Assembly: GCA_035528115.1 (NCBI GenBank)
Contig: DATKZF010000003.1
Span: 292,651 to 356,650 of the forward strand
DNA: 64,000 nucleotides
Direction of reading: 5' to 3'
Source of the DNA: Candidatus Bipolaricaulota bacterium
GTDB lineage: Bacteria; Patescibacteriota; Patescibacteriia; UBA11705; DATKZF01
Shown here: piece after piece, positions 14,621-34,850 of the stretch
How the letters are laid out: each line of letters opens with the position of its first letter
How positions within the stretch are numbered: the first letter of the stretch is position 1
Notes under the pieces: generated by a model
Seen by the model: the letters and a program-made list of their open reading frames with translations, nothing else
What the model was told of the DNA's origin: nothing
Database searches by the model: none
Program-made: the position numbers and the translations under genes

Positions 14621-14734
14621 TTCGACTCGGCTTTGCTGCGGCAAAGCCTCGCTCATGGTGTTCCACCACCTGCACAAGCGGGGCGAGGCGAATGCCCTGA
14701 GTGAGGAGCGGTAGTGACGAATCGAAGGGCATTC
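14621..14734 (+). repeat. Conserved tRNA 3'-trailer element (class 1)
   Basis: TTCGACTCG...CTCGCTCATGGTGTTCCACCACCTG...GAGGCGAATGCCCTGAG. Near-identical copies follow tRNA-Phe, tRNA-Gly(CCC) and tRNA-Ala. Confidence 0.7.
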
Positions 14735-15119
14735 TTAAAACCGGCATCTTGGCCGATTTTTTTATTTTTAAAAATTTTAATGAATTTTAAAAGCGGCCTG
14801 CGTTGCAGTCCGCTTGGTGGTTGACTTGAGAAGACGAGGTTCAGCTCACGAGGAAGCCCGAGGCAGAACCCCACTGCCGTCTGGCAAGCGCGCCCAGTAC
14901 GTCGTCTCCGACAACTTTCGTCGTCATGACAACTCTCCTTGCGCTCGCGCTGAAAAACCGGTCAGCGCTTCCGGCCCCGCCTCGACTTGAGAACAGGGAG
15001 ATTCGGAAAAAATTTGTCCGAATGTCTTTATTCTCAATTCAAGATAGTATGTTATACAACAACAGAAATGTCAATGATAAAATCTCTTATTATAACCGAA
15101 GTCAAAGGCATATTTTACA

Positions 15120-15148
15120 TTGACAGTACCTCCCTCATAAGTTAAAAT
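15120..15148 (+). promoter_or_regulatory. Sigma70-type promoter (TTGACA-17-TAAAAT) for the island-2 gene
   Basis: Exact -35 hexamer, 17-bp spacer, near-consensus -10, 33 bp upstream of the ATG. Confidence 0.6.
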
Positions 15149-15181
15149 TTATTCGAACTCAACACCCGGGAGGGCCACAAG

Positions 15182-15808
15182 ATGAGCGGGAACACAACGC
15201 CCGAAACTGGCGCGGATCAATCAACCCGCGATGAGGAGACGTGGCACAGCCGCGTCTTTCATCAGTGGGTCGGCCAGGCAAACGGCCGGCTGGTTGGATA
15301 TCCGGCCGCGTTCATCAGCGAAGTGATCGGAGACAATCCCTGTTTCTCAGATGCCGCGGCCACCGGATCAAGCGTGGCCAATGCCTGCATGGCCGCCATG
15401 TCAGTCGATTACTCGGACGAGCTCGGGCGCGGCGGAGCGCTCTGGCTGAGGCGACAGCCGGCAAGGATTTGGAAGCAGCTTCTAGGATTTTCAGAACATC
15501 ACCGCCAAGGAGTCGACGAAACATTCCTGGCCATGGTGATGTGGCTGTTTGACCCGGAAAGCGACCGAGCTCATGACAACGCCTTCGAATGGCTATGGGA
15601 TATACATCCTTACTTTTCCTGCGGTATGCACATGACCGGCAGACTCAGCTCCGACTTCGACAACCAGATTGAGGAGACAGCTCAATCCTGGCCGGCAGAT
15701 ACCAGGCGATGGACGCGCTGGGCGACCGAGAAATACCCGCTCGCGTTCCAAAATCTCGGAGGTTTTATCAAGCGCGGCGACTTAATAAGCGCGCCGATCC
15801 AAGAGTAG
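15182..15808 (+). CDS. Hypothetical protein (208 aa), GC-rich island 2
   Basis: RBS GGGAGGG 7 nt upstream; about 62% GC; no recognizable domain. Confidence 0.6.
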   Translation: MSGNTTPETGADQSTRDEETWHSRVFHQWVGQANGRLVGYPAAFISEVIGDNPCFSDAAATGSSVANACMAAMSVDYSDELGRGGALWLRRQPARIWKQLLGFSEHHRQGVDETFLAMVMWLFDPESDRAHDNAFEWLWDIHPYFSCGMHMTGRLSSDFDNQIEETAQSWPADTRRWTRWATEKYPLAFQNLGGFIKRGDLISAPIQE

Positions 15809-15833
15809 CCACGGCTGCTCTTTTTCAAATTTA

Positions 15834-15858
15834 AGAGAGCCAATGTGATGGCTCTCTA
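15834..15858. terminator. Bidirectional hairpin between convergent genes
   Basis: agagagcca-atgtga-tggctctct, a 9-bp stem. Confidence 0.4.
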
Positions 15859-16185
15859 GTTGAACGCGACTTCGTGATACGGAGCAAAAGACTCCGCGTC
15901 AAAGATCGACGCGACCATGCGGCCGTTCAATTCCGGGTCCCAGGCCGGTTTGATCGAAATCAACACTTTTTTGCCGACCACTTCGCCGAAAAGACAGCCC
16001 GAAAACACCATGACTTGTTCCTTGCCGTCAATTTCAACAACAATGACCGCTCGGTGTCTGGCATGTCTGCCATATTTGTCGGCCGTTACTTTCAGCAACC
16101 GGAACCTTTTGAACACGCCAAGCACTTGAAGCATCGTCTTCCCTCCCGGTTTAGGTTCCCATTCGACATACATTATAATTATCAA
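15856..16185 (-). CDS. Hypothetical protein (~105 aa)
   Basis: About 50% GC. TTGACA-N15-TATAAT lies immediately before the internal Met MYVEW, so it is possibly leaderless. Confidence 0.4.
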   Translation of the reverse strand: MIIIMYVEWEPKPGGKTMLQVLGVFKRFRLLKVTADKYGRHARHRAVIVVEIDGKEQVMVFSGCLFGEVVGKKVLISIKPAWDPELNGRMVASIFDAESFAPYHEVAFN

Positions 16186-16227
16186 GCAATCCTGTCAATT
16201 GCGATTTTTGTCTTTGAGTGGTAAAAT

Positions 16228-16320
16228 TTGGGTACAAGATTACAGATAAACACACGAGATTATACAGATTGGAGTTATATCTCGTACAATCTGTACACTA
16301 ATCTGTAATCTCGTAACCTA
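16228..16320 (+). repeat. Palindrome-rich ~70-nt intergenic element (copy 1)
   Basis: cgagattatacagattgg...aatctgtaatctcgtaa. Near-identical copy at 57085..57152. Confidence 0.7.
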
Positions 16321-16325
16321 AAAAT

Positions 16326-17372
16326 ATGCAAACGATTTACATAATCACCACCGTAATTTTCGCGATTCTTTTCATCGCTGCGCTTTTTTATTTTTCAAAA
16401 AAACTAAGCGCGCTCAAGCCCGAAGAAAAAGACGACAAAAGCATGCAGCTTTTGCAAGAGCAATTGAAAGAAATCCGGCAGACCATGGATTACAAGCTGG
16501 GTGAATCTCAAAAACAAATTCAAACGCAATTCGGCCAGAGCGCCAAAATAATTCGGGACGTCACGGAAAAATTGACCAAACTCGACGACACCAATAAACA
16601 AGTGATGGGCTTTGCCGAGCAGCTGCAAAGTCTGGAAAATATTTTAAAAAACCCGAAGCAAAGAGGAATTTTGGGAGAATATTATTTGGAAACTCTTTTG
16701 AAAAACGTTTTCGCGCCCAATCAATATCAATTGCAATACAAATTCACTGACGGAGAAATAGTGGATGCCGTGATTTTCATCAAAGACTATATCATTCCCA
16801 TTGATTCGAAATTTTCACTCGAAAATTACAATAAAATCGTGGAGGAAAAAGATCCGACTCGGCACGAGCAGCTGGAAAAACTTTTCAAACAGGATTTAAA
16901 AAACCGAATCGATGAAACATCCAAATACATCAGGCCTCAAGAAACAACGACTGACTTCGCTTTCATGTTTATCCCGTCCGAAGGAATTTACTACGACCTT
17001 TTGGTCAACCAAGTCGGCGCGGTCAAAGTCAACACGCGCGATCTGATCGAATACGCGTTCAAGGAAAAACATGTGATCATTGTTTCGCCGACTTCATTTT
17101 ACGCGTATTTGCAAACAGTGATTCAGGGCTTGAAAAAAATGCAAATAGAGGAGCAGACCAAGGAAATAATCAAACGCGTGGAAGAACTCAACAAACATAT
17201 CGCGGCTTATGACATGCACATGAAAAAATTGGGCAATAACATCGGCACGACCGTGAACACTTACAATACCGCTTATAAAGAATTCAAAAAAATAGACAAA
17301 GACGTAGTGCGGATTACCGGCAGCGAGCCGGCGATTGATCCGATGGAGATTGATAGGCCGCAGGCAGACTAA
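16326..17372 (+). CDS. rmuC: DNA recombination protein RmuC
   Basis: N-terminal TM, long coiled coil, C-terminal RmuC-like domain. Confidence 0.7.
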   Translation: MQTIYIITTVIFAILFIAALFYFSKKLSALKPEEKDDKSMQLLQEQLKEIRQTMDYKLGESQKQIQTQFGQSAKIIRDVTEKLTKLDDTNKQVMGFAEQLQSLENILKNPKQRGILGEYYLETLLKNVFAPNQYQLQYKFTDGEIVDAVIFIKDYIIPIDSKFSLENYNKIVEEKDPTRHEQLEKLFKQDLKNRIDETSKYIRPQETTTDFAFMFIPSEGIYYDLLVNQVGAVKVNTRDLIEYAFKEKHVIIVSPTSFYAYLQTVIQGLKKMQIEEQTKEIIKRVEELNKHIAAYDMHMKKLGNNIGTTVNTYNTAYKEFKKIDKDVVRITGSEPAIDPMEIDRPQAD

Positions 17373-17590
17373 TAAATCCAGCGGCATCGGTATTGAGGCT
17401 TGAACATTGAAATTCGTTATATCGAAATTCGAAATTGGCTATGGAAATTCGAGGTTCGAGATTCGTTTTAACCGATTTCCGACGTTCTATTTTCTATTAC
17501 TCTTCAGCTTCGCTCAGGACGGACGATTTTTCCTTCTAATTTGTAACCATTTGTAATATTTGTATTGATTTGTAAATTTGTAACCCCAAC

Positions 17591-17619
17591 TTGACAAGGC
17601 CTCAATTCCCCGCTATTAT
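17591..17619 (+). promoter_or_regulatory. Sigma70 promoter TTGACA-17-TATTAT for rpsT
   Basis: Exact -35 hexamer and 17-bp spacer. Confidence 0.65.
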
Positions 17620-17666
17620 ATCAAAAGTCATTATCTTTAATATTCAACCTTAATCTTACAACTGAT

Positions 17667-17945
17667 ATGCCAAATACCAATCAAGGTAAAAAAGAACTGA
17701 GAAAAAGCATCAAGCGATCCAAATTAAATCGCGTCGCTGTGGCAAAAGTTAAAACTTTGAGAAAGAAAACTCTCAAATCAATCGAATCAAAATCGGCCGA
17801 TGCGGAAAAAATGATCAAAGAGACCATTAAAAATATAGACAAGCAAACTCAAAAAGGCAGAATCAAAAAAAACACCGGCTCGAGAATGAAATCAAGGTTG
17901 ATAAAAAACTATAACAAGACCAAAGCCGCGACAGATTCAAAATAA
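17667..17945 (+). CDS. rpsT: 30S ribosomal protein S20
   Basis: KKR...RNK...QKGRIKKNTGSRMKSRL pattern typical of S20. Confidence 0.8.
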   Translation: MPNTNQGKKELRKSIKRSKLNRVAVAKVKTLRKKTLKSIESKSADAEKMIKETIKNIDKQTQKGRIKKNTGSRMKSRLIKNYNKTKAATDSK

Positions 17946-17962
17946 ATTCAATCCAATATAAA

Positions 17963-17992
17963 AAGACCGGCATAAAAGCCGGTTTTTTGTTT
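17963..17992 (+). terminator. Intrinsic terminator of rpsT
   Basis: accggc-ataaaa-gccggt followed by TTTTTTG. Confidence 0.75.
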
Positions 17993-18000
17993 TGATCGCG

Positions 18001-18078
18001 CGGGATGGGCGCATGCCCATCGTAGAGACGCGCCATGGCGCGTCTCTACGCGGCGGCGACCCGCCGCCGACCCGCGCG
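18001..18078. repeat. GC-rich nested palindromic element (copy 1 of 3)
   Basis: gatgggcgcatgcccatc, gtagagacgcgccatggcgcgtctctac, gcggcggcgacccgccgccg. The same core GTAGAGACGCGCC..GGCGCGTCTCTAC occurs at 50172 and 53987. Confidence 0.8.
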
Positions 18079-18081
18079 GTT

Positions 18082-19053
18082 TTACAACCCCATCACAAAC
18101 AAATCCAACAAAAGTTGCGGCGACCAGGAAGTGGATTTGAATTTTTTTTCAATCGATAAAAGCCGGCTGTAAATTTTTTTCAATTCTTCAAAAGTGAATC
18201 TGTCCGCCTGCTGCCAAGTCTTTTTGGCCACGAACGGGTGCAGTTTCAATTCCCTGGCCGCGAATTCCGGCGAACTTGTTCGGCCGCTGTTTTTAACGTC
18301 TTTGATCATCAAAATATTTCTGAATTGCCTGACAATCATGGTCAACAAATAAAATTGATTGGCGCCGCTGCCAAGTTGATCGGCCAAGAGCTTGCCGCTT
18401 AAAGCTTTATTTTTTACTGAAAGCGCGTCCACGAAATCGAAAATATTGTCGTTGAATTTTCCCTTGACCAAATCCTCGACATCTTTGACTGAAATTTCCC
18501 GATTCCGGCAATAGCTCGCCAACTTCTGAATTTCAGCGTCCAGCTGCCACAAATCATTGCCGACCAAAATTGCCAGCCGCTCAGCCGCCGAATTGGCAAT
18601 GGTCCCGCCGACCGAAGCGACTTGTTTTTTTATCCAATCATTTAGCAAAAAACCTTTGGGGCTGGCAAACGATTTTACTTCCGCCAAAGGCGCCTTAGCG
18701 AGCGCTTTGTAAATCTTGCTTCTTTTATCGATTTCGCCTTTTTGGGAAAAAATCACGAAAAATTTTTCCGGCAATTTTTCAACGCTCCCCAAAATCAATT
18801 CTTCTATTTTTTTATCTTGTTTTTTCGCGAAAAAATTTTTCAAAATAATCAATTTATTTTGGCCGAAAAGCGAATCGACCTGCAAAGCGTTCTTTAATGT
18901 TTGTTCGACATTCCCCTTTTCTTCAAAATCTATTTTTAGAATATTAAAATATCCGTATTTGTCTTCAAACAAGGTTGTCCATTTTTGAATTTGTTTTGAA
19001 ATCGCCCAGCCGTTTTCGCCTGACCAGACGTAGATTTGTTTTTTATCAACCAT
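18082..19053 (-). CDS. holA: DNA polymerase III delta subunit
   Basis: HolA-like sequence. The true start is probably MVDKKQIYVW; the upstream extension MQQQEIPAFAGMT is a translated hairpin repeat. Confidence 0.7.
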   Translation of the reverse strand: MVDKKQIYVWSGENGWAISKQIQKWTTLFEDKYGYFNILKIDFEEKGNVEQTLKNALQVDSLFGQNKLIILKNFFAKKQDKKIEELILGSVEKLPEKFFVIFSQKGEIDKRSKIYKALAKAPLAEVKSFASPKGFLLNDWIKKQVASVGGTIANSAAERLAILVGNDLWQLDAEIQKLASYCRNREISVKDVEDLVKGKFNDNIFDFVDALSVKNKALSGKLLADQLGSGANQFYLLTMIVRQFRNILMIKDVKNSGRTSSPEFAARELKLHPFVAKKTWQQADRFTFEELKKIYSRLLSIEKKFKSTSWSPQLLLDLFVMGL

Positions 19054-19075
19054 AATTAGACAATAACCTTTTGTG

Positions 19076-19146
19076 GATTCCCGCTTTCGCGGGAATGACT
19101 GCCGGGAGCGGAACAATGCCCTTTTTGTCATTCCCGCGAAAGCGGG
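19076..19146. repeat. Inverted pair of hairpins attcccgctttcgcgggaat / attcccgcgaaagcgggaat
   Basis: Two perfect 20-nt hairpins in opposite orientation. They generate the FAGMT-type spurious N-terminus. Confidence 0.7.
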
Positions 19147-19173
19147 AATCTCTTGCTGTTGCATTGCTGCTCC

Positions 19174-21900
19174 CTAATACAACTTCTCCAAATCCCTCCA
19201 ATTATCCCCGTAATCGGTTTCGACCGTGATCGGCACGCAGGTTTTGTGGATCTTCTCCATTTTTTCATCGATTATTTTCGCCACTTTTTCCAATTCTTTT
19301 TCCGGCACTTCGAAAACAAGCTCATCGTGAACTTGAAGCAGCATTTTTGTCTCGGGACTGATTTTTTTCAATTCTTTATAAACTTCAATCATGGCGATCT
19401 TTATCAAGTCAGCGGCCGTGCCCTGAATGGGCGTATTGATCGCTTCGCGCTCAGCCGCGGCCTTGATTTGCTGCACGCCCGAATGAATATCCGGGAAATA
19501 TCTTTTTCTGCCGAACATGGTTTCCGTGTAGCCGTTTTCGCGGGCGAATTCTTTGATGCTTTCCATGTATTCTTGAACACGGCTAAATGACCGGTAATAT
19601 TTATCGATAAATTCTTTGGCTCTTTGAATGGAAATGCCGGTTCTGGCCGCCAAACCGTACGCGCCCATGCCGTATAAAATGCCGAAATTAATCATCTTGG
19701 CTTCGCGGCGCATATCTTTGGTGACGTCTTCGAGCTTGACGCCGTGAATTTTGGCCGCGGTTGCCGTATGAATATCATGTCCGGCTTTGAAAATTTCTAT
19801 CATGTTCTCGTCTTTGGCGAGACAAGCGACCACTCGAAGCTCTACCTGGGAATAGTCCGAAGAAACCAGTTTGCTTCCGGGCGCGGCAATAAAAGCTTTT
19901 CTGATTTTCATGCCGAGCGTCGTTCTTTTCGGAATATTTTGCAAATTCGGATCGGAAGAAGACAGCCGTCCCGTGGCCGTGATCGTTTGATTGAAGCTGG
20001 TGTGCACGCGACCGTCCGGCTTGACCAGTCGCGGCAAGGCGTCGATATAAGTGGATTTTAATTTCGTCAATTCGCGATATTCGACTATCAATTCAATGAT
20101 GGCATGCTTGCCCAAAAGTTTTTCCAGCTCCCCGGCTGCGGTCGAAATGCCGGTCTTGGTTTTTTTCAGTCCTTCGGTCGGCAATTTCAATTTTTCGAAA
20201 AAAATCACTTTCAATTGCAACGGCGAATTGATGTTGAATTTTTCACCGGCTTGCTTGTAAATTTTTTTCTCGAGCTCGCCCAGTTTTTCTTCGAATTCTT
20301 CAGACAATTTTTTCAAATATTTCAAATCGAGTAAGACGCCGTTTTTCTCCATTTCCGCCAAAACGTAAATCAAAGGCATTTCCATTTTTTCGAGCAAATC
20401 AAACAGTCCGTTTTCTTTTAATCTCTTCTCCAAAATTTTGTAAATTCGATAAGAAATATCCGCGTCTTCGCAAGAATATTCCGAGACTTTTTCTTTGGCC
20501 ACTTCAAATAAAGATTTTTGTTCTTTGCCTTTGCCGATCAGCTCTTCAATGGCAATCATTTGATGCCCCAGCTCGCGAAACGCCAAATCATTCAAATTGT
20601 GGCCGCGAGATCCGGGATTTAAAAGATACGACGCGATCATGGTGTCGAAATACAACCCTTTGACTTCAAGACCCGCCGCTTCAATCACTTCAAAATCGAA
20701 TTTCAGGTTATGGCCGACTTTTTTTATCTCCTGATTTTTGAAAATGGATTTTAATTTTTCAAACCGCTCTTTGTCGTAAATCACGTAATAAGCTTTGCCC
20801 TCATGCCAAGAAAAGCTGACTCCCAAAAGTTTATTAAAAAAGGGATCCAAGCCATCGGTTTCGGTGTCAAACGCGAAAATATTTTGTTTTTTCAGATCCG
20901 CTAAAAACGACTCGAACTTTTCAGCCGTATCCACCAATCGGTAATCGAGATTTTCTTTGGTTTTGGCAATGACCTTTTCTTCCGTTTGGCCGGCAATCTC
21001 TATTTTTTCCAAACGGTTCATCAATGTTTTAAATTGCAATTTTTGAAACAGTTTGCTCACTTTTTCCAAATCAAAAGGTTTGACCTTGGAATCGGACAAT
21101 TTGAATTTAATCGGCGTGTCTTTGACCAAGGTAACCAATCTTTTACTCTCGAACGCCGCCTTTTTATTTTCTTTCAATAAATTAATCACCCGCGGCTTCA
21201 AGTTTTTCGACTTGGCCGTGTCTTTTTCCAATTCATCATATAAATTTTCCAGAGTGTCGAATTTATTCAGTAAATCAATAGCCGTTTTCTCGCCGATGCC
21301 CGGCACGCCCGGAATATTGTCCGAGGGGTCGCCGCGCAAAGCTTTGTAATCGATCATCTGTTCCGGACCCAAGCCGTTAAATTTTTCCCTGACTTCTTTT
21401 TCATTGTAAGTGATTGTCTCTGAAATTCCCTTATGCAAAGCGTAAACTTTGGTGTTATGGTCAACCAATTGCAAAGCATCCATGTCGCCGGTGACGATTA
21501 TCGACTCGACATCCGGGTTGTCAATGATTTTTCTATTGACCAAAGTGGCGATGATGTCATCGGCTTCATAACCCTTGAGATCGTAATAAGGAATTTTAAA
21601 AACATCCAAAATGTTTTTTACATCATCCAGCTGAGCGTACAATTCATCGGGCTGTTTCACTCTCTGCGCTTTATATTCTTTATACTCAATTTTTCGAAAA
21701 GTCGGTTCGCGCCGGTCAAAGGCCACGGCCAAATAATCCGGTTTCAAATCCGGATAAAGTCTCAGCAAAATCGAAGTAAAGCCGTAAGCGGCATTGATCA
21801 ATTTACCGTCTTCGGTGGTGAGCGGCGGCAAGGCGTGCCAAGCTCGATGCAAGATGGCATTGCCGTCGATAATGACGAATTTTTTCTTTTTTAAAGCCAT
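19174..21900 (-). CDS. polA: DNA polymerase I
   Basis: 5'-3' exonuclease N-terminus and a polymerase domain with DYSQVELRV...HD motifs. Confidence 0.92.
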   Translation of the reverse strand: MALKKKKFVIIDGNAILHRAWHALPPLTTEDGKLINAAYGFTSILLRLYPDLKPDYLAVAFDRREPTFRKIEYKEYKAQRVKQPDELYAQLDDVKNILDVFKIPYYDLKGYEADDIIATLVNRKIIDNPDVESIIVTGDMDALQLVDHNTKVYALHKGISETITYNEKEVREKFNGLGPEQMIDYKALRGDPSDNIPGVPGIGEKTAIDLLNKFDTLENLYDELEKDTAKSKNLKPRVINLLKENKKAAFESKRLVTLVKDTPIKFKLSDSKVKPFDLEKVSKLFQKLQFKTLMNRLEKIEIAGQTEEKVIAKTKENLDYRLVDTAEKFESFLADLKKQNIFAFDTETDGLDPFFNKLLGVSFSWHEGKAYYVIYDKERFEKLKSIFKNQEIKKVGHNLKFDFEVIEAAGLEVKGLYFDTMIASYLLNPGSRGHNLNDLAFRELGHQMIAIEELIGKGKEQKSLFEVAKEKVSEYSCEDADISYRIYKILEKRLKENGLFDLLEKMEMPLIYVLAEMEKNGVLLDLKYLKKLSEEFEEKLGELEKKIYKQAGEKFNINSPLQLKVIFFEKLKLPTEGLKKTKTGISTAAGELEKLLGKHAIIELIVEYRELTKLKSTYIDALPRLVKPDGRVHTSFNQTITATGRLSSSDPNLQNIPKRTTLGMKIRKAFIAAPGSKLVSSDYSQVELRVVACLAKDENMIEIFKAGHDIHTATAAKIHGVKLEDVTKDMRREAKMINFGILYGMGAYGLAARTGISIQRAKEFIDKYYRSFSRVQEYMESIKEFARENGYTETMFGRKRYFPDIHSGVQQIKAAAEREAINTPIQGTAADLIKIAMIEVYKELKKISPETKMLLQVHDELVFEVPEKELEKVAKIIDEKMEKIHKTCVPITVETDYGDNWRDLEKLY

Positions 21901-21912
21901 ATGGTCATTTGA

Positions 21913-21941
21913 ATTATAGCGTTTTATGATGAAATTTTCAA
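21913..21941 (-). promoter_or_regulatory. Sigma70 promoter TTGAAA-17-TATAAT for polA, near-leaderless
   Basis: -10 ends about 12 nt before the ATG; no RBS. Confidence 0.5.
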
Positions 21942-22010
21942 TGTTAGAGGGCTAATGTTAGGAATTACATCCACCTTTGGCCTTATGCTTGAGAAGATTG
22001 TATTTCGTAA

Positions 22011-22052
22011 CACTGTATTGAAAAAGCCCAATGGTCATGACCAAAGGGCTTT
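22011..22052 (-). terminator. Intrinsic terminator of the island-3 gene
   Basis: aaagccc...gggcttt hairpin followed by a T-run on the minus strand. Confidence 0.65.
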
Positions 22053-22067
22053 CGGGGGCGGGCCAAC

Positions 22068-23735: not shown

Positions 23736-24053
23736 GCTGTCATCCTCCTGTTGTTGCGCATGATTGATATATCGATATGTCAAACTGCTGACTTATTATA
23801 CTAGAACAAAATCGTATTCTTGTCAATTCCCCAAATTATTTCAAAAGCTCTGCCATTTTACAATATGTATGACTGATTGGAAAGTAAAAGTATTACAAAA
23901 AAATGTCCCGATCAAGGACACTTTTTCTACCGATTCATGCCATTCTTCGCTTCGCGAAGAATGGGGGCACGGACCCACCTTCGTCAAGACTACGGCAAGC
24001 AGGCGGGATTTGCACCCATGCATAGCGGTTTTGTCCCGATAAATAAATAAATT

Positions 24054-25528: not shown

Positions 25529-25530
25529 TC

Positions 25531-25990: not shown

Positions 25991-26076
25991 ACAAATTTGT
26001 ATACTGCGAAAGCCACGGTAAAACGTGGCTTTTGTAATTTAAAAGGGCTACTGCTGTAAGTAGCCCGCGAGTAAGT

Positions 26077-26451: not shown

Positions 26452-26579
26452 CTCCTCCTCCTTTAATAAATAAAAAATATCAATTCCGCGCCGCGCTGTC
26501 AAACGCGGCTTATTGGCTGATTGACAAAAAAGCGATTTTATGAGACGGTATACCAGGCCAAGCAACAAGGAGGATCGCC

Positions 26580-27353
26580 ATGAAACGGTCAATTTGTCTG
26601 GCTCTGTGTCTGTCTCTGTCGGTTTTGGCAAGCTGCGGAGCCAATGCTCCAAACACTTGCCCTGATCAAATCGTCTGGAACGTGCCGTATTCCTTGTGCG
26701 GCCAAAGCTGCGCCAAGTCCGAGACTGCGTGGGCAGGCGTCAACAAGAACATCTGCACAATGATGGAGGCAAGGATCTCACATGCCCCTGTCGTGAGCGG
26801 GCCATACCTGTTTCAGCTTTCGATGTCTTCGGCCTACGGAGCTTTGAGTCTTACTACCGCGCAAGAAGTCAGCGACTTGTTCCACATCTTCTACCCGCTG
26901 ACACAGCCGACGCACCAGCCGGGCGAGGTCGCGGGAGACTTGGTGTCAAACGAACAGCCATACCTCGTTCTGATTAACGGCGGCAACGTCAAAGAAATCA
27001 TTCAGTTGCGTGCGCTCGACGTTCCTTGGATGAACAAAGGCCGGGACTTTATTCCCACGGACAGGGACGCACTGCTTCTGGAAATCATGTCCAAAATGCA
27101 CGTCAACAATGACGGCGCATACACGTTGATACCTGTCAACATCAATTGTCCAATCTCGGAGTGCTATACCATCGATCTTGCTCCGGAGACCGTTGAAGGG
27201 TTTTTCCACATGGGTAAGACTCCTCGCAGAATATGGACTGTACAATATCAACAAAAGGAATTGACCGGCATCATCGAGATGGTCTTCCTCGATAACAACA
27301 GTTGCCGCAAACCTGAGACACCCGAGCCATTAGCCCCTGTCTTCGACCTCTGA
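26580..27353 (+). CDS. Lipoprotein (257 aa), GC-rich island 4
   Basis: RBS AAGGAGGA; signal peptide with lipobox LASCG; about 55% GC. Confidence 0.6.
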   Translation: MKRSICLALCLSLSVLASCGANAPNTCPDQIVWNVPYSLCGQSCAKSETAWAGVNKNICTMMEARISHAPVVSGPYLFQLSMSSAYGALSLTTAQEVSDLFHIFYPLTQPTHQPGEVAGDLVSNEQPYLVLINGGNVKEIIQLRALDVPWMNKGRDFIPTDRDALLLEIMSKMHVNNDGAYTLIPVNINCPISECYTIDLAPETVEGFFHMGKTPRRIWTVQYQQKELTGIIEMVFLDNNSCRKPETPEPLAPVFDL

Positions 27354-27418
27354 ACCTAGTCGCCATAGCCTCTAGGTTTTTTCAATTCATAATCCAGATG
27401 ATATAATGATTTCATAAT

Positions 27419-28090
27419 ATGAAATACGACATTTTAACTCTTTTCCCAGAAATCTTCGACTCTTATCTAAATGAGAGTATTTTGGGACGCGCTCAAAAAA
27501 ACAAGAAAATTCAAATCAAAATCCATGACATTAGAAAAAACGCGATTGATAAACACAACACCGCCGATGACAAGCCGTATGGCGGCGGACCGGGCATGGT
27601 CATGATGATCGAGCCGATTTACAAAACCTTAAAAAAAATCAGACGCAAAAAAAACTCCAAGGTTATCTTATTGTCCGCTCGCGGCAAAACATGGACTCAG
27701 CAAAGAGCGCAAAAATACAAAAAATTGGATCAGCTGATTTTAATCTGCGGACATTATGAAGGCGTGGACGAAAGAATCAAAAATTTCATTGATGAGGAAA
27801 TTTCCATCGGCGATTATGTTTTGACCGGGGGCGAGCTGGGCGCCATGGTTTTAGTTGATTCCATCTCAAGATTGATTCCCGGAGTACTGGGCAAAAAGGA
27901 ATCCTTGAAAGAAGAATCTCATTCCCAAAAAGGTTATTTGGAATATCCTCAATATACTCGGCCCGAAATATTTAAAGCTGGTGGCAAAAAATACGCGGTG
28001 CCGGAAATCTTACTCTCGGGCCACCATTTGAAAATAAACGAGTGGCGACAACGCCAATCAAAAAAGTTTGATTTTTTTAACAAGGTCTGA
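27419..28090 (+). CDS. trmD: tRNA (guanine37-N1)-methyltransferase
   Basis: PYGGGPGMVM and GDYVLTGGE SPOUT motifs. Confidence 0.9.
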   Translation: MKYDILTLFPEIFDSYLNESILGRAQKNKKIQIKIHDIRKNAIDKHNTADDKPYGGGPGMVMMIEPIYKTLKKIRRKKNSKVILLSARGKTWTQQRAQKYKKLDQLILICGHYEGVDERIKNFIDEEISIGDYVLTGGELGAMVLVDSISRLIPGVLGKKESLKEESHSQKGYLEYPQYTRPEIFKAGGKKYAVPEILLSGHHLKINEWRQRQSKKFDFFNKV

Positions 28091-28136
28091 TAAAATAAAA
28101 AAATAAACTCGCTATTCGCGAGTAAGGGAGCAACCA

Positions 28137-28331
28137 ATGAACGGGGAACGCAAAATTCTGATTCCACAAATCAGGGATTTCGAGAAGTTGAAGGTGAACG
28201 CGCCTTCTCAAGGAATCCAAGCTCTCTGCAACTTGCCCTGCCACCAGGTCTGCCGCGCCTGCAGCTGCAAGGCCCCTCAGGACAAACCAACAACACCCCA
28301 AAACGAATACAGGTTCAACTTCGGGGCGTAA
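28137..28331 (+). CDS. Cys-rich small ORF (64 aa), candidate RiPP precursor
   Basis: RBS AAGGGAG; CNLPCHQVCRACSCK cluster; convergent with the rSAM/peptidase genes. Confidence 0.3.
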   Translation: MNGERKILIPQIRDFEKLKVNAPSQGIQALCNLPCHQVCRACSCKAPQDKPTTPQNEYRFNFGA

Positions 28332-28361
28332 CAACGCATCCCGAGAAAGCGTCTCTCAAGT

Positions 28362-28391
28362 GAGAAGGAAAAACCCTTCTCATTTTAATTT
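28362..28391. terminator. Bidirectional intrinsic terminator
   Basis: gagaagg-aaaaa-ccttctc followed by ATTTTAATTT. Confidence 0.55.
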
Positions 28392-29063
28392 CAAAAATAA
28401 GTACTTTAATAATTTGTCAATATTAGCGTCTCGATAAAGCTCAATAGAATTTTTATAAATTTTTTCATGTTCCGGATAAGGCTTTTGCTTTCCGATGTTA
28501 AACTTTTCTTTGCATTTACTGGAATTCATTATATGTATATTTATAATCTCAGAAACCGCCCATAATATATTCTCGTTCTTCTTGCCAGTAAACGCTGGGA
28601 ACCTTGCAAAAACATAATCATAAAAAATAAAATGAAGCATTTCATGAATAATTGTTTCAATTATACCGACCCTTTTATAATATGCCTGAAATATCTTATT
28701 CTTTATATCCCGTGGATTGCAATTCCAGATAGATAAATAGCACTTGTATACCCCCTTTGGGAAGGGGTGGCAATTAAAATACTCTTCGGCGAAACAAAAA
28801 AATTCATCACTTTTTCTATCCCACGCCTTCTCAGATGCAACTTTCGCTTTCAATATATCTTTTAAATGCGTTTTATAATATGAGGCCGTGTATGACTTTA
28901 GTACACATGGACTTATTCTTCCTTTCTTTTTCAATTCAGGATGCGAATTCAAAATACCTTTTTCAAAAAAAGAAAAACCTCCAAATTTAATTTTTCTAAA
29001 TTGGCAAGCTATTTTATAATCCAACTTTTCATCTAGACGAAACAGTAATTTAGGATGGTTCAT
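28380..29063 (-). CDS. HExxH-motif protein (putative metallopeptidase)
   Basis: IIHEMLHFIF motif. Confidence 0.5.
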   Translation of the reverse strand: MNHPKLLFRLDEKLDYKIACQFRKIKFGGFSFFEKGILNSHPELKKKGRISPCVLKSYTASYYKTHLKDILKAKVASEKAWDRKSDEFFCFAEEYFNCHPFPKGVYKCYLSIWNCNPRDIKNKIFQAYYKRVGIIETIIHEMLHFIFYDYVFARFPAFTGKKNENILWAVSEIINIHIMNSSKCKEKFNIGKQKPYPEHEKIYKNSIELYRDANIDKLLKYLFLKLK

Positions 29064-29106
29064 AAAAAAATGGCAAACTTCAATGTAAGTTTACCATCTC
29101 GAAACA

Positions 29107-30495
29107 CTATCGCAAAGACTTGTAAAACGTCCAGATGAGGTATTCAAGCGTCCTTTTTGCATGGACGCAGAACACCTCATCAATATCATAGAGATTCCCA
29201 TGTTTGATTTCGGCATAATAAGGACAGCCTCCACCGCATATTGCCAACGCCGGACAAGAAAAGCAATGGGCTATATTCAACGGAGATCTTTGTCCCCAGT
29301 ATTTGAATTCCGCAGAACCTCGGAAATCGAAAGACTGCTCCTTCACGTCGGTAATGAAATATTTACCTGTTCCCAAAAACCCCGCACAAATACCTACGCT
29401 CCCTTTGGGAGATACCACAATCTGACTACCGCACCCAGCGCAATCATAGGGGTGGCAGTTCCCCATGACAAACGCATCGAACTTTCTACCCATTCTATCT
29501 TCATAAATTCCCCTGCGTTTCAAATGTTCAAATCCAGAAATCAAGGCCTTGGCAACCCTTTCGCCATAATCATCCGAGACTGCATATGGTGGTATTGGCC
29601 TAACAATATTGAAACCGACACTTTTGATTGCCGGCGTTTTATCTATCCATTCCAAAATTTGATCAAAGTCCCTCAGGCTTTCTTCACCCAAGGTACAGGA
29701 GATCCCGAACTCTGCGCCCACTTGATGCAGTAATTCCATCCCCGCAAAAATTGCCCTCACTGTTTTATGACTCTGACTGCGGTTAAGGTTCAATGCGGCC
29801 GGGCCGTCGATTGAAATAACCACAGTAACCCCATGCTCTTTCAAAAAAACGGCTATCTCCCTGGTCAACAAGGTACCATTTGTAATAATCGAAATGTCGG
29901 TCTTTTTAGGCAGTTGTGACCTCTCCACAAAGGAAAGAATTGACAGAATGGCCCTTTTCAGACCTCGCTCATTAATCAAAGGTTCCCCGCCATAAAGAAT
30001 CACCTAGCATTCAGAATGACTGGCCAATGTCACCTGGCGGGCGAAAAATTGAATCGCCGCATCCACGGTCGACTCAGACATCAAAGCAGGACGGTATGTG
30101 GACGGAAAACTATTTCGGACAAAACAATACCTGCATGATAGATTGCATTTATCAGTCAGCAACAAGTACATTACAGAGACGCCCCATATCATCTGCTTTG
30201 AACGAAAAGACTCCAGTTCTGCTTGACTGTCATGCGTATCCAAGACAATGAACTTCTTCGACAGAAGAAGCTCGAACATTTTTTCCGAATCATCCTGTCC
30301 CATTCTCAAATGGTCAACAAATTCTTCCCTTATAAACAAAGTGCCGGTCAACCATTGAATGAATGGCTCGTTGCTCATGGGAAAAAAGATTGGGCTAATT
30401 CCCAAAGAATGATAGAGACAAAGGGCCTCATCTCCCTTATAAAAGTGCGTGAACGGAGATATTCTATACTTGTTTTCAAGGTTCAATCCTGGCAT
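29107..30495 (-). pseudogene. Radical SAM / SPASM-domain enzyme interrupted by a single in-frame TAG (at 30004..30006)
   Basis: The N-part carries CNLSCRYC (CxxxCxxC). The C-part begins VILYGGEPL and ends with the Cys-rich SPASM motif CAGCGS...CFSCPALAICGGGCP. Both parts share one frame, separated only by TAG. RBS AAAGGAGA before MPGLNL. Confidence 0.6.
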
Positions 30496-30615
30496 TTCCG
30501 TCTCCTTTCGTTGTTTAGGCTTTGCCACTCGCATTTTAGAATATTATTTGAAAATATTCAAAAATCCCGTAAAAACTACCCACAATTAATCCACCTTTTG
30601 GAACCAAAAAAAGAT

Positions 30616-30644
30616 TTGACATCTTTTTTATATTGCGATATAAT
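30616..30644 (+). promoter_or_regulatory. Consensus sigma70 promoter TTGACA-17-TATAAT for 16S rRNA
   Basis: About 100 nt upstream of the 16S 5' end. Confidence 0.6.
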
Positions 30645-30744
30645 CTTTACCACATTGATCTTTACAATAGAAAATTGATAGAAAGAAGTCCATTGTTTAC
30701 TTTTTTTCAGAGTTTTGACCAACTCTTTTCAAAATGGTCAAATT

Positions 30745-32231
<1,487 letters not shown>

Positions 32232-32378
32232 TGGAGATATCGAATAAGTGACCTTGACATTGCTTATTCAAATTCGGTCGAGATTCCGATTTATCGGAGT
32301 CAGGACTTCCTTTCTATCAATTTTCTGTTGTAAATAAAAAAAGCGGCCTGATTGGCTGTTTTTTTATTCAATAAAACA

Positions 32379-32407
32379 TTGACTATTTCATACATTTTTG
32401 ATATAGT
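32379..32407 (+). promoter_or_regulatory. Promoter TTGACT-17-TATAGT for the tRNA cluster
   Basis: Follows a weak hairpin plus T-run after the 16S. Confidence 0.45.
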
Positions 32408-32464
32408 TTCTATTGAAGTTTTTGTAATAATCCGATAGAATAAAGCCATAGTCGGTTCCCTTTA

Positions 32465-32541
<77 letters not shown>

Positions 32542-32631
32542 GCCTTCGCTAAAGCTTCGGCTGGCAGGCCAACTTTTAGAAATCGGTCCGATTCATCGGG
32601 ACTCCAAAATTTTTCACTTTTAACTTTTTAC

Positions 32632-32708
32632 GGGCGTGTAGCTCAGTTGGTTAGAGCGCAGCACTGATAATGCTGAGGTCATAGGTTCGATTCCTATCAC
32701 GCCCACCA
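32632..32708 (+). tRNA. tRNA-Ile (GAT)
   Basis: Anticodon loop ctgataa. Confidence 0.85.
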
Positions 32709-32774
32709 GCCTTCGCTAAAGCTTCGGCTGGCAGGCCATAAGATGCTTGCCCGACAAAGCCTTGGCGAAGTCGG

Positions 32775-32849
32775 GCCAGGTTAGCTCAGTGGTAGAGCGA
32801 AGGACTGAAAATCCTTGCGTCCCCAGTTCAATTCTGGGACCTGGCACCA
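32775..32849 (+). tRNA. tRNA-Phe (GAA)
   Basis: Anticodon loop ctgaaaa. Confidence 0.85.
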
Positions 32850-32960
32850 TTCGACTCGCCCTCGGTGCCACTCGGGCTCGCTCATGGTGTGCCACCACCT
32901 GAATGTACGAAGTGAGGCGAGTGCCCTGAGTTTATGGAAGGGTTTTTTTATTTTTGTTTG
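32850..32960 (+). repeat. tRNA 3'-trailer element (class 1) copy
   Basis: TTCGACTCG...CTCGCTCATGGTGTGCCACCACCTG...GAGGCGAGTGCCCTGAG followed by a terminator-like hairpin and T-run. Confidence 0.7.
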
Positions 32961-33025
32961 TTATTTGATATTTGTTGTTTGGAATTTGTTTAGGATTTAG
33001 TGTTTAGAATTTATAATTTAATCCA

Positions 33026-33102
33026 CGGGGTGTGGCGCAGTTGGCTAGCGCGCTTGCTTTGGGAGCATGAGGCCGTGGGTTCGAGTCCCACCACCCCGAC
33101 CA
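33026..33102 (+). tRNA. tRNA-Pro (TGG)
   Basis: Anticodon loop tttggga with one mismatch in the anticodon stem; acceptor CGGGGTG. Confidence 0.75.
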
Positions 33103-33162
33103 GCCTTCGCTCCTCCTCGCTCCGCTCGTCGGGGCTTCGGCTGGCGGGCCAGCCAAAAAAAT

Positions 33163-33420
33163 ATGCAAAACCATTTAAAATATTTTGTTTATATAGCACA
33201 AAGTTTAATTAAAGATGATGAATTTTATAAGGGATATTCAGTTGATATTGACGAAAGATTGATTAAGCATAATTTAGGATTATCCAAGCATACTGCAAAA
33301 TATAAACCATGGAAAATTATATTTTATTGCGCTCTTAGCAATAGAGAAAAAGCTATCGCTTTTGAGAAATATCTTAAATCCGGATCAGGAAGGGCTTTTG
33401 CCAAAAAAAGATTCATATAA
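33163..33420 (+). CDS. GIY-YIG nuclease superfamily protein (UPF0213/YhbQ-like, 85 aa)
   Basis: YFVYIAQSL...GYSVDIDERL...KYL.SGSG pattern. Confidence 0.6.
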   Translation: MQNHLKYFVYIAQSLIKDDEFYKGYSVDIDERLIKHNLGLSKHTAKYKPWKIIFYCALSNREKAIAFEKYLKSGSGRAFAKKRFI

Positions 33421-33561
33421 TTTAAATCGCTTGGCGGGTTTACCCCGCTAAAATTTCAACATGCCTACGAGATGGCGGGCCTGCTCCTCGAGTCTGAGCG
33501 ACGAGATCGTCAGACCTCGGAGTCGAAGACCCGCCGAAGCTCGAACATAGTGAGAGCGCAG

Positions 33562-33636
33562 GCGGGTATAGTATAATGGCTATTATGTCAGCCTTCCAAG
33601 CTGAATATACGGGTTCGATTCCCGTTACCCGCTCCA
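33562..33636 (+). tRNA. tRNA-Gly (TCC)
   Basis: Anticodon loop cttccaa. A partial 3' duplicate lies at 33750..33772. Confidence 0.85.
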
Positions 33637-33645
33637 ATAAAAAAA

Positions 33646-33682
33646 TCCCAACGATGTGTTGGAGTTTTTTTATTTAGGAATC
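33646..33682 (+). terminator. Intrinsic terminator
   Basis: tccaac-gatgt-gttgga followed by GTTTTTTTATTT. Confidence 0.65.
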
Positions 33683-33826
33683 GAACCCATACCAAGAGCA
33701 AAACAGATTCCCGCTGCCCTGAGCGAGAGAGGCTTTACCGAACGAGTCGAAGGGTTACCCGCTCCAATAAAAGAACTTCAACATTGCGTTGAAGCTTTTT
33801 TATATCAGTAAAATAATCTCAAAAAT

Positions 33827-34591
33827 TTACGCCACCTCAAAAAACAATCTTAACAGCAACATAAAGCCCAAACCCAGCAAAAAGAAAATAAACGCGAGAA
33901 TCGATTTGCTAAGCTTCAGCTCGCGATTGAGCTCGGGAATCAAATCCGAGGCCGCAATATAGATAAATCCGCCGGCGGTAATGGCCAAAAGCAGCGGCGT
34001 AACGCCCTCAATATGTCTGGCCAAAATCAAACCGATCACAGCGCCAACAACCGCGATAAGCGCGGACATAAAATTGTAAAACAAGGCTCTTGCTTTAGTA
34101 AAACCGCCATAAATTAAAACTCCGAAGTCACTGATCTCCTGCGGAATTTCATGAGTAATAACCGCCAATGTTGTCACCAACCCCAGATGAAAATCAGCCG
34201 CGAAAGAAGCGGCAATCACCAAGCCGTCGATAAAATTATGAAAACCATCGCCGATCAAATTCATATAAGATAACGCTTTTCGATGTCTTTTCTCATCGCA
34301 CTCGCCTTTGCATTTATGATTGTGGTGCCAGTGAAAAACCCTTTCGATGATAAAAAACAACGTGAATCCCGACAAGATGAAAAAGGTTATGGAGATCGCC
34401 GGTTTTTCCGCCAGCGCCTCGGGGATCAGATGAAGCAAAGCCCCGCCCAAAAGCGATCCGGCGGAAAACCCCACCAAAAGCAATAAAATTTTCTCAAGCA
34501 ATTTATCTTTTAACAGCAATGCCAAGATGCCCGCGAACGATAAAAGGCTGACCAAAAAAGTTGCTCCGATTGTCCAAAGAATGATTTGCAT
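33827..34591 (-). CDS. zupT: ZIP-family zinc transporter
   Basis: Multi-TM; HNFIDGLVIA and HEIPQEISDF motifs. Confidence 0.8.
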   Translation of the reverse strand: MQIILWTIGATFLVSLLSFAGILALLLKDKLLEKILLLLVGFSAGSLLGGALLHLIPEALAEKPAISITFFILSGFTLFFIIERVFHWHHNHKCKGECDEKRHRKALSYMNLIGDGFHNFIDGLVIAASFAADFHLGLVTTLAVITHEIPQEISDFGVLIYGGFTKARALFYNFMSALIAVVGAVIGLILARHIEGVTPLLLAITAGGFIYIAASDLIPELNRELKLSKSILAFIFFLLGLGFMLLLRLFFEVA

Positions 34592-34678
34592 ATGCTCTCA
34601 GCATAGCAAAATATCAAGGCGCAATCAAGCGCTCAACGCTTGTTTTAAGCCTCAGGAATTGCTAAAATAATAATGCTC

Positions 34679-34753
34679 GCGGGCGTCGTATAGTGGTTAT
34701 TACATCGGCTTCCCAAGCCGAGAACGGCGGTTCGATTCCGCTCGCCCGCTCCA
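34679..34753 (+). tRNA. tRNA-Gly (CCC)
   Basis: Anticodon loop ttcccaa. Confidence 0.85.
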
Positions 34754-34850
34754 CTCGACTCGGTCTTCGCAAGCTCAGACCTCGCTCGTGGTCTTCGACC
34801 ATTATTGACCGAGGCGAGTGCCCCGAGCATGCCGAGGGGCATTCTCAAAT
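34754..34850 (+). repeat. tRNA 3'-trailer element (class 1) copy
   Basis: CTCGACTCG...CTCGCTCGTGG...CCGAGGCGAGTGCCCCGAG followed by a GC hairpin. Confidence 0.7.

Follow-up and report, generated by a model that had tools for sequence, protein, structure and literature searches.

What is the conserved sequence of about 100 nucleotides (nt) that directly follows several tRNA genes in a 64-kb stretch of DNA from a Candidatus Bipolaricaulota bacterium (contig DATKZF010000003.1, positions 292,651 to 356,650; Patescibacteriota in the GTDB lineage), and how did it come to stand there? The stretch, which we call the window, holds 10 tRNA genes and unlinked rRNA genes, 23S-5S on the minus strand and 16S on the plus strand (ARAGORN, Rfam). 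The original prediction, made from the sequence, had noticed the element behind tRNA-Leu, tRNA-Phe, tRNA-Gly(CCC) and tRNA-Ala and had proposed a co-transcribed structured RNA, a processing or termination module, or the arm of an element directed at tRNA 3' ends. On balance, we lean towards the view that the four copies are miniatures lacking an open reading frame (ORF), or the non-coding arm, of a GIY-YIG-linked mobile cassette targeting the 3' flank of tRNA and tmRNA genes.

The four copies were borne out by our analysis, each starting one base past the tRNA end called by ARAGORN. The sequence CTCGCTCRTGGT has exactly 4 perfect matches in the window; with up to 2 mismatches it matches 16 times against 5.2 expected, and none of 100 shuffles gave as many. 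Likewise, GAGGCGARTGCCCYGAG with up to 3 mismatches matches 5 times against 0.33 expected. The extra partial copy reported near tRNA-Ala is there, as is a second, simpler class of hairpin behind tRNA-Val, tRNA-Ile and tRNA-Pro (class 2 in what follows, the ~100-nt element being class 1). The supposed degraded copy at 33680-33740 does not run forward: it is an inverted-orientation unit (33716-33754) with a duplicated tRNA-Gly(TCC) 3' end behind it. The elements are islands rich in G+C, with 59-68% against 45% for the window.

The class-1 element has a constant order of parts. Behind the CCA come a pyrimidine (Y+1), a segment 'a' (TCGACTCG), a variable hairpin (P2), a segment 'b' (CTCGCTC), a purine (R1) and a TGGT-loop-ACCA hairpin (P3). 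Full copies add a linker of 3-35 nt, a segment a'1 (CGAG[G/T]CGA-R2-TG) and a hairpin P4 of the form NCC-Y4-GAGCGAG-x-CGAGTCGA-R5-GGN, and about 18 half copies have no 3' arm at all. The reverse complement of P4 is another a-hairpin-b unit, so that the full element is a forward unit followed by an inverted unit. The forward unit is a long irregular hairpin, closed by a stem (P0) in which the ACCA of the tRNA and the following Y pair with R-UGG-U. Inside it, a helix between UCGACUCG and CUCGCUC is made of G-C pairs broken by pyrimidine mismatches and a bulged A, and the end hairpin P2 is free in sequence. Alternatively, UGGU pairs with a second ACCA just downstream (P3), and in full copies CGAG(K)CGA-R-UG forms 11 bp with CA-Y-UCGACUCG (P1). 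In the inverted orientation the a/b helix contains two tandem G.A motifs in YGAR context and a bulged U. Complete cassettes consist of the element, a short spacer with a TGnTAnnAT box, and a gene for a stand-alone GIY-YIG protein of 80-90 aa. The class-1 copies of the window and their parts are as follows.

14535-14620 (+): tRNA-Leu(TAG) (ARAGORN, Rfam); its 3' ACCA is the 5' strand of the closing stem of the element
14621-14729 (+): class-1 element after tRNA-Leu, full length
14621-14629 (+): Leu element, Y+1 plus 'a' (TTCGACTCG), then the P2 hairpin at 14630-14647
14648-14655 (+): Leu element, 'b' and R1 (CTCGCTCA), then P3 (TGGTGTTCCACCA) at 14656-14668
14684-14694 (+): Leu element, a'1 (CGAGGCGAATG), then P4 (the inverted unit) at 14695-14729
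14741-14763 (+): terminator behind the Leu element, a canonical hairpin and T-run as read from the sequence
32850-32942 (+): class-1 element after tRNA-Phe (32775-32849), reaching 32949 with its T-run
32850-32858 (+): Phe element, 'a', then P2 at 32859-32876, 'b' and R1 at 32877-32884, and P3 at 32885-32897
32913-32923 (+): Phe element, a'1, then P4 at 32924-32942, followed by T7
34754-34839 (+): class-1 element of C/G/G type (bases at Y+1, R1 and R2) after tRNA-Gly(CCC) (34679-34753)
34754-34762 (+): Gly(CCC) element, 'a', then P2 at 34763-34780 and 'b' and R1 at 34781-34788
34789-34801 (+): Gly(CCC) element, P3, then a'1 at 34810-34820 and P4 at 34821-34839
2255-2353 (-): class-1 element of C/G/G type after tRNA-Ala (2354-2430, -)
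2345-2353 (-): Ala element, 'a', then P2 at 2328-2344, 'b' and R1 at 2320-2327, and P3 at 2307-2319
2291-2301 (-): Ala element, a'1 (CGAGTCGAGTG, the perfect complement of 'a'), then P4 at 2255-2290
2231-2249 (-): extra partial b-R1-P3 fragment (ATCGCTCATGGTGTTCCAC)
2185-2210 (-): terminator behind the Ala element and the partial fragment

We scanned 185,579 genomes, one per species, with an exact pattern that fixed 'a', 'b' and TGGT, and obtained at least 128 matches in at least 120 loci; the counts given below come from the matches listed, and the loci compared with the window carry L-numbers. About 78 of these loci belong to Patescibacteria of many classes (Saccharibacteria, Peregrini-/Peribacteria, Paceibacteria, Doudna-, Magasanik-, Komeili-, Kerfeld-, Falkow-, Buchanan- and Nomurabacteria), and two Armatimonadota and two Acidobacteriota metagenome-assembled genomes also have the element. 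A (C)CAY stands just upstream in 84 of the 128 matches. All 54 tRNA-adjacent copies matched by ARAGORN lie at an offset of exactly +1, behind tRNAs with 27 anticodons. At least nine elements abut tmRNA genes found by ARAGORN, four more have tmRNA-like upstream ends, and where the tmRNA gene encodes no CCA the element begins directly behind the discriminator. Most other matches preceded by (C)CAY are at contig ends or behind short 3' fragments of tRNAs. The remaining matches, in coding DNA of high-G+C organisms and not preceded by CCA, were set aside as chance. Across the 617 kb of these loci, 77 forward units stand at a CCA, and nearly all other units are the P4 of the same elements. The module was not found in IMG/VR viral contigs, where the four matches were chance occurrences inside coding DNA. 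Within the window, eight of the 10 tRNAs have some CCA..UGG-loop-CCA trailer, and many tRNAs of the compared loci run straight into a plain terminator. The family may be far wider, as the 'PELVEG' and 'SLSKG' peptides in spurious ORFs of many phyla presumably resemble translations of inverted units.

The element folds, and covariation strongly backs several of its pairings. Among copies from the ultra-small bacteria of the Candidate Phyla Radiation (CPR) the bases at Y+1, R1 and R2 occur as T/A/A (40), C/G/G (18) and T/A/G (2), with none discordant, and in the half copies, which have no a'1, Y+1 and R1 are still T/A (16) or C/G (7). Since the three vary together, Y+1 pairs either with R1 (P0) or with R2 (P1, 11 bp with CA:UG). 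In P4, Y4:R5 is T:A in 27, C:G in 14, T:G in three and C:A in none of 44 copies. P2 occurs as 79 different hairpins, almost all of which fold, with a mean minimum free energy of -6.2 kcal/mol against -1.7 kcal/mol for shuffled sequences. RNAalifold, run on 22 copies, picked P0, P2 and P4 unprompted. In P1, P2 and P4 together 92% of cells are paired (shuffles 78%, slid controls 28-46%), and the covariation score is 0.425 against 0.157, a value that none of 500 shuffles reached. Where position 5 of 'a' changes, position 4 of 'b' changes with it (C:G 85, T:A 10, T:G 3, C:A 0; about 10 other combinations were taken as spurious pattern matches), which indicates that 'a' and 'b' pair together within the unit. 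Variants of 'a' are compensated in a'1 in L008, L092, L069 and L220. The strongest case comes from the tRNA-Lys(UUU) loci, which have CAC-T for CCA-T, A-GTG-T for A-TGG-T, GTGT-AAA-CAC as P3, and GT instead of TG after a'1: four segments shift jointly, so that selection has acted on the pairing of P0, of P3 and of the P1 extension alike. The tRNA gene of L224 encodes no CCA, and there the element itself supplies the closing stem. Only the key single pairs lean towards an RNA of the sense strand, with five U:G against one C:A. A pseudoknot between CUCGCUC and GAGCGAG in the loop of P4 is a possibility; the complementarity is frequent, the extending pair has five A:C violations in 49 copies, and variants are uncompensated.

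At gathering score, Rfam 15 reported only rRNA, tRNA and tmRNA in the window and in 18 loci, and nothing relevant appeared at E<=5-10 over the Leu, Phe, Gly and class-2 copies. On the minus strand the class-2 hairpins (32531-32576 and 32683-32743) score 19-20 bits against the Pseudomonas small RNA P26, whose gathering score is 36, probably by chance. Literature searches (CPR tRNA trailers, miniature inverted-repeat transposable elements (MITEs) at tRNA and tmRNA genes, UPF0213/YhbQ) turned up no description of the element, and the family is uncatalogued.

Some other folds were tried and dropped. RNAalifold offered a CGA:UCG register inside the unit, against which the covariation of 'a' position 5 with 'b' position 4 backs the other register. 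Threaded by eye, the element does not make an RNase P substrate mimic (a helix followed by RCCA), as UG-NCC follows P1, nor does it take an HDV-like (hepatitis delta virus-like), hammerhead or hatchet topology, having no P1.1 and no CUGANGA/GAAA. In an RNase III processing stem the cut would fall 2 bp from the end of the helix, and the half copies have no long helix.

The element is linked to a nuclease gene. Five aligned Peribacteria loci, in which the element follows different tRNAs and tmRNA, have a conserved ORF of 84 aa just behind it, and tblastn finds a GIY-YIG ORF in 18 of the ~78 loci, on the strand of the element and beginning 99-277 nt past Y+1. Approached from the protein side (428 close homologs, PF01541 only), with the contexts of eight different proteins fetched blind, seven of the eight lie behind an intact tRNA (Val, Leu in three cases, Lys in two, Met) and a class-1 element; the eighth has only a 12-nt tRNA 3' fragment and a truncated unit before it, and a toxin-antitoxin pair as its neighbour. 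In L028, L206, L210, L211, L220, L221 and L222 the GIY-YIG ATG is preceded at 8-12 nt by TGnTAnnAT, a conserved box that resembles an extended -10 element, which suggests that the gene has a promoter of its own; so near the start codon, it would give a leaderless or nearly leaderless mRNA. The proteins, of 79-90 aa, consist of the catalytic domain only, match the UPF0213 structures 1zg2 and 1ywl in the PDB and have no model in NCBIfam. They fall into the minimal, stand-alone group of Slx1-like proteins (PMC1564403). One gene of this kind is present in the window, behind a class-2 element.

32542-32571 (+): class-2 element after tRNA-Val, GCC-TTCG-C TAAA G-CTTC-GGC-TGG-CAGG-CCA
32709-32738 (+): class-2 element after tRNA-Ile, all 30 nt identical to the Val copy
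33103-33151 (+): class-2 element with a long inner hairpin, after tRNA-Pro (33026-33102) and directly upstream of the GIY-YIG gene
33163-33420 (+): gene for a stand-alone GIY-YIG nuclease of 85 aa (Pfam PF01541, E=2e-12), the ORF-bearing form of the cassette

The closing stem of the Val copy, CCAGCC:GGCTGG, is built with the CCA of the tRNA and is followed by a TGG-CAGG-CCA mini-hairpin. The GIY-YIG protein of the window is of a second subfamily, far larger, whose more than 2000 homologs include some from Proteobacteria and Acidobacteria; orthologs of the protein in the same tRNA cluster of relatives are 80% and 69% identical. Genes of this type lie behind a class-2 hairpin in three genomes, after tRNA-Pro in the window and L230 and after tRNA-Lys in L226. 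Taken together, the class-1 and class-2 contexts indicate that each class of hairpin goes with its own GIY-YIG subfamily.

Other GIY-YIG genes were seen in less regular settings. In the cultured alphaproteobacterium Parvularcula flava (L229:756-1330) a window-type gene lies 170 nt after tRNA-Val(gac), bracketed by the direct repeats GCCTTCGGCTTCGG[A/G]TGGCGCAGCCAT, an arrangement by which the tRNA-adjacent niche reaches cultured Proteobacteria. In L084 (555-851) a window-type ORF sits within the D-arm of tRNA-Phe, flanked by the 13-nt direct repeat TAGCTCAGTGGTA; the tRNA-Phe of the related L080 is intact. Past the GIY-YIG stop codon, L088 and L069 have a short 3'-end fragment of a different tRNA (..CTCGCTACCA and ..GGAGCCACCA) and then a second forward unit. 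In L004 and L106 inverted units translate to ..ECPEPVEGQ.. and ..ECPELVEGQ.., lengthening the ORF calls upstream of the real GIY-YIG start.

Comparison of related genomes reveals that the element is dispensable and is exchanged quickly. The window shares the cluster Val(tac)-Ile(gat)-Phe(gaa)-Pro(tgg)-GIY-YIG-Gly(tcc) with L226/L227 and L230/L231, and the homology of L226 and L230 to the window ends exactly at each CCA, beyond which elements are present, absent or of the other class. Behind tRNA-Phe only the window has a class-1 element, L226 and L230 having none; behind tRNA-Val there is class 2 in the window, class 1 in L226 and none in L230; L226 has no element after tRNA-Gly(CCC) and tRNA-Pro, and L230 none after tRNA-Ile. 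L077 and L082 have 83-90% identical flanks at their tmRNA locus, and the ~175-nt elements between them are unalignable, one of T-type and the other of C-type, with P2, P3 and P4 all different. These two comparisons (window with L226 and L230, L077 with L082) provide the polymorphism of presence and absence with sharp boundaries that marks a homing cassette. As in MITEs, ORF-less copies are many, about 60 against 18 linked to an ORF among the ~78 loci; the window itself has four class-1 and two class-2 (Val, Ile) ORF-less copies and one ORF-bearing copy, after tRNA-Pro. In full copies CA-Y-TCGACTCG and CGAGTCGA-R-TG form an 11-bp inverted repeat, which is absent in half copies. The CCA..CCA (or CAC..CAC) flanks of the forward unit also pair with UGG and may therefore reflect structure, not duplication. 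Copies of the same genome are alike even in their linkers (L038/L114, L076/L089, L086/L097); some sub-families are common to several genomes yet stand at different tRNAs, and chimeric copies occur (L084). Units are nested in the loops of P3 or P4, and tandem arrays were also found. A metagenome scan for orthologous loci based on the ZIP transporter gave no synteny with tRNAs.

Some repeats in these loci are local. In L081 (minus strand, oriented ~150-340) three to four half units stand in tandem behind one tRNA with a period of ~50 nt. In L230 (~2050-2330) three tandem partial 5' ends of tRNA-Pro with leader, each broken after GGCGC by a G+C-rich insert, precede the intact tRNA-Pro.

We favour a mobile cassette because the exact junction, the selected pairings, the patchy presence among orthologs, the replacement of whole cassettes, the nesting and tandem duplication and the class-specific link to GIY-YIG genes, all established by the comparisons above, fit together. 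Such cassettes would spread at the DNA level, the nuclease providing, as its linkage suggests, a mobilising or homing activity, and the tRNA 3' flank would offer a safe and highly transcribed harbour. The mobility machinery may recognise the anti-CCA segment together with the folded units, which would explain why a changed tRNA end is matched by a changed segment. The element would be transcribed as a tRNA 3' trailer and removed by normal maturation: judging from the sequence, we infer co-transcription from canonical terminators that stand after the element and not before it. The arm of an element targeting tRNA 3' ends is thus the best supported part of the original prediction, with a minimal GIY-YIG nuclease as the linked gene and not the integrase of an att remnant; of the co-transcribed structured RNA, covariation strongly upholds the structure, and terminator placement makes the co-transcription plausible. 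Covariation and the behaviour of a selfish repeat occur here in one element, and the contrast between them on which the original prediction relied does not separate the options.

Several points weigh against the mobile cassette. No transposition or homing event was seen directly in the loci compared, and empty and filled sites cannot be aligned past the CCA because the spacers are A+T-rich and diverged, so that neither a right boundary nor a target-site duplication could be read from them. The nuclease is a bare catalytic domain that lacks the DNA-binding domain of known GIY-YIG homing enzymes, and we know of no GIY-YIG transposase. A target of 3-4 nt (CCAY) is too short to account alone for exclusive specificity to tRNA and tmRNA genes. 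About 75% of the elements have no adjacent ORF, and the half copies do without the 3' arm. Transcription as a trailer is itself deduced from where the terminators appear to lie. Finally, a role as an RNA useful to the host would account just as well for the deeply conserved UCGACUCG and CUCGCUC and for the strictness with which the tRNA end is paired, and the conservation of 'a', 'b' and TGGT is in part imposed by the search, whose pattern fixed them.

Such a role could be that of a cis-acting tRNA 3'-trailer module of the host, which would fold on the CCA and mark or protect the 3' processing site, or terminate transcription, GIY-YIG genes merely inserting nearby. In favour of a host module, the element starts exactly where the mature tRNA ends or, in tmRNA genes that lack CCA, right behind the discriminator; the CCA:UGG pairing is kept and tracks an altered tRNA end, the eight trailers of the window share this design, and terminators follow the element, P4 of the Phe copy being one itself because T7 comes right after it. 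However, only in the Phe copy does the last hairpin play this part, and orthologous tRNAs of close relatives lack the element (Val, Ile and Phe in L230; Phe, Pro and Gly-ccc in L226) or carry the other class. Plain terminators are common behind the tRNAs of the same loci, elements are replaced wholesale between genomes with 83-90% identical flanks, and in L224, where the tRNA gene has no CCA, the closing stem comes from the element. We consider a host module unlikely, and a processing or termination module does not stand as a host requirement. Less probable still is a nuclease acting on its own substrate, in which the minimal GIY-YIG protein would cut the transcribed trailer RNA at or near CCA|Y and so make the insertion harmless, as maturases or self-splicing do for introns. 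Each hairpin class is tied to its own subfamily, and the inverted units, as read from their sequence, carry the tandem G.A motifs in YGAR context that are typical protein-binding features of RNA. A role in RNA metabolism has been suggested for prokaryotic stand-alone Slx1-like GIY-YIG proteins, one of which is fused to a TrmH-like tRNA methyltransferase (PMC1564403). Against this, the characterised GIY-YIG enzymes are DNA nucleases, most elements have no neighbouring ORF, and the ORF seems to have its own promoter, which makes the coupling genomic and not transcriptional. We give a similarly small chance to a base-pair-guided system in which the R-UGG anti-CCA segment and the folded units would direct the minimal UPF0213 nuclease to tRNA-3'-like ends, for insertion or for a trailer cut at CCA|Y. 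If this were true, UPF0213 would gain a guide- or structure-dependent activity, and there would be a new way of targeting tRNA genes.

Both remaining explanations strike us as very improbable. A new self-cleaving ribozyme could free the tRNA 3' end, as do the HDV-like theta ribozymes found 3' of phage tRNAs (PMC10879173). The element has their position (offset +1 in 54 of 54 copies, a likeness of position only), its conserved nucleotides lie between helices of free sequence, and its boundary is the required cleavage site, CCA-less tmRNA genes included. Nevertheless, it matches no ribozyme family even at the permissive threshold used for the Rfam search above, and it does not form the nested double pseudoknot of HDV-like ribozymes (P3 abutting the 3' strand of P1, P1.1, and a catalytic C in J4/2), since a variable linker of 3-35 nt parts P3 from the 3' strand of P1, a strand that half copies do not have, and the loop of P3, at 3-4 nt, has no bases to spare for P1.1. 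The residues of the 'conserved loop' pair with one another and with a'1, and a cut would leave a 2',3'-cyclic phosphate on a CCA that is already complete. The other explanation is that genomic islands of the integrase type, or prophages, entered the 3' ends of tRNA and tmRNA genes and left att-site remnants there. Such genes are classic integration targets, and short inserts with a repeated tRNA 3' end do occur (window 33755-33766, L061, L022, L091, L081, L088, L069). Yet these duplications affect a subset of loci only; the element, which begins past the CCA, has no block of identity with a particular tRNA, it stands behind at least 27 different anticodons and behind 4-8 of the 10 tRNAs of one 64-kb window, the linked gene encodes a GIY-YIG protein and no integrase, and the viral contigs of IMG/VR lack the module.

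The nearest precedent for the favoured GIY-YIG cassette is T4 SegB (PMC2330249). There too a GIY-YIG gene lies among tRNA genes and is reported to be inherited as a cassette with flanking sequence, its presence varying between relatives. SegB-type proteins have DNA-binding domains and are phage genes, whereas here a bare UPF0213 domain of 80-90 aa is found in cellular genomes, a folded element starting at the base after the CCA always precedes the gene, and ORF-less miniatures outnumber ORF-bearing copies. With REP/BIME and REPIN-RAYT systems the element shares short G+C-rich imperfect palindromes that are extragenic, occur in inverted pairs (the forward unit and P4), nest, form mosaics, are homogenised within each genome and are accompanied by a dedicated nuclease-type gene flanked by repeats. 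It differs in that the enzyme is GIY-YIG and not HUH/Y1, in its strict restriction to tRNA and tmRNA 3' ends, and in a closing stem that uses the CCA of the tRNA; the sequences that were read contain no GTAG motif, and no search for RAYT genes was made in the rest of these genomes. The likeness to the IS200/IS605 family, in which an internal guide beside a subterminal hairpin recognises the target by pairing, is conceptual only: R-UGG complements the flanking CCA-Y, changes with it (CAC-T with A-GUG) and adjoins a hairpin, but the enzyme class is different, the guide lies 3' of the hairpin, no left and right ends are defined as a pair, and mobility is deduced. Integron attC sites are folded, with conserved paired boxes, an extrahelical base and a terminal hairpin of free sequence, and conserve structure more than sequence; these folding features look alike in our element, which has no sequence similarity to attC and no integron integrase, and follows tRNAs instead of gene cassettes.

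Among structured RNAs, theta ribozymes, the one class known to lie directly 3' of tRNAs, resemble the element in starting at the tRNA 3' processing site and differ from it in fold, with no match of the element to HDV-like models, and in occurring in phages, the element not having been found in IMG/VR. Of the tRNAs associated with theta ribozymes 4.5% have a CCA in the gene (PMC10879173), whereas here the CCA is usually encoded, and paired. The non-intron insertions with GIY-YIG ORFs in CPR rRNA (PMC11270868) occur in the same organisms, involve the same nuclease superfamily and invade structured-RNA genes (cf. L084), but they lie inside rRNA genes; that paper mentions tRNA 0 times.

A large, structured and unannotated repeat family is hereby delimited in the least understood large bacterial radiation, the CPR, whose tRNA trailers should be checked for it before they are called host regulatory RNAs. 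Its inverted units inflate ORF calls (..PEPVEG.. and similar peptides), and its elements probably break assemblies, as many copies are at contig ends. For UPF0213, two structures have been solved and the literature searches found no assigned function; a stand-alone UPF0213/Slx1-like GIY-YIG protein is now tied to a specific nucleic-acid partner and to a niche, and its activity is directly testable. A mobile element whose structure includes the CCA of the host tRNA, and changes with it, would represent either a novel principle of targeting or a novel means of sparing tRNA maturation the effects of an insertion.

The window contains further units and trailers of related design.

33474-33535 (+): inverted-type unit (GTC-T-GAGCGA..GAGTCGA-A-GAC) between the GIY-YIG gene and tRNA-Gly(TCC)
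33716-33754 (+): inverted-type unit, GCCCT-GAGCGAG-..-CGAGTCGA-AGGG
33755-33766 (+): duplicated tRNA-Gly(TCC) 3' end, TTACCCGCTCCA, directly behind the preceding unit
62597-62625 (+): trailer of the same design after tRNA-Ser
23940-23965 (-): CCCA-hairpin-TGG trailer behind a partial 3' duplicate (pseudo-copy) of tRNA-Cys

The unit at 33474-33535 sits in the loop of a GGCGGG/CCCGCC hairpin, which L226 and L230 keep as the plain hairpin GGCGGGTTTACCCGCC with no unit in it. In the Ser trailer, GCCA of the tRNA and CGTCGCTC pair with GAGCGACG-TGGC, and TGGC-TCA-GCCA follows. Behind tRNA-Gly(TCC) lies a 112-nt insert (33637-33766) that ends with the inverted unit, TTACCCGCTCCA and a second, diverged terminator, and that includes a minus-strand T-arm fragment near 33683-33694; a short insert with a repeated tRNA 3' end was likewise seen in L061, L022, L091, L081, L005 and L047. 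At 23940-24053 (-), behind tRNA-Cys, stands an incomplete second copy of the 3' half of this tRNA, interrupted by an insert and ending in the CCCA-hairpin-TGG trailer and a terminator. Lastly, near the tRNA-Ala element, an ORF at 782-1963 (+) has an AAA-type NTPase region at its N-terminus and a Csx3 domain (PF09620, E=2e-19) at its C-terminus.

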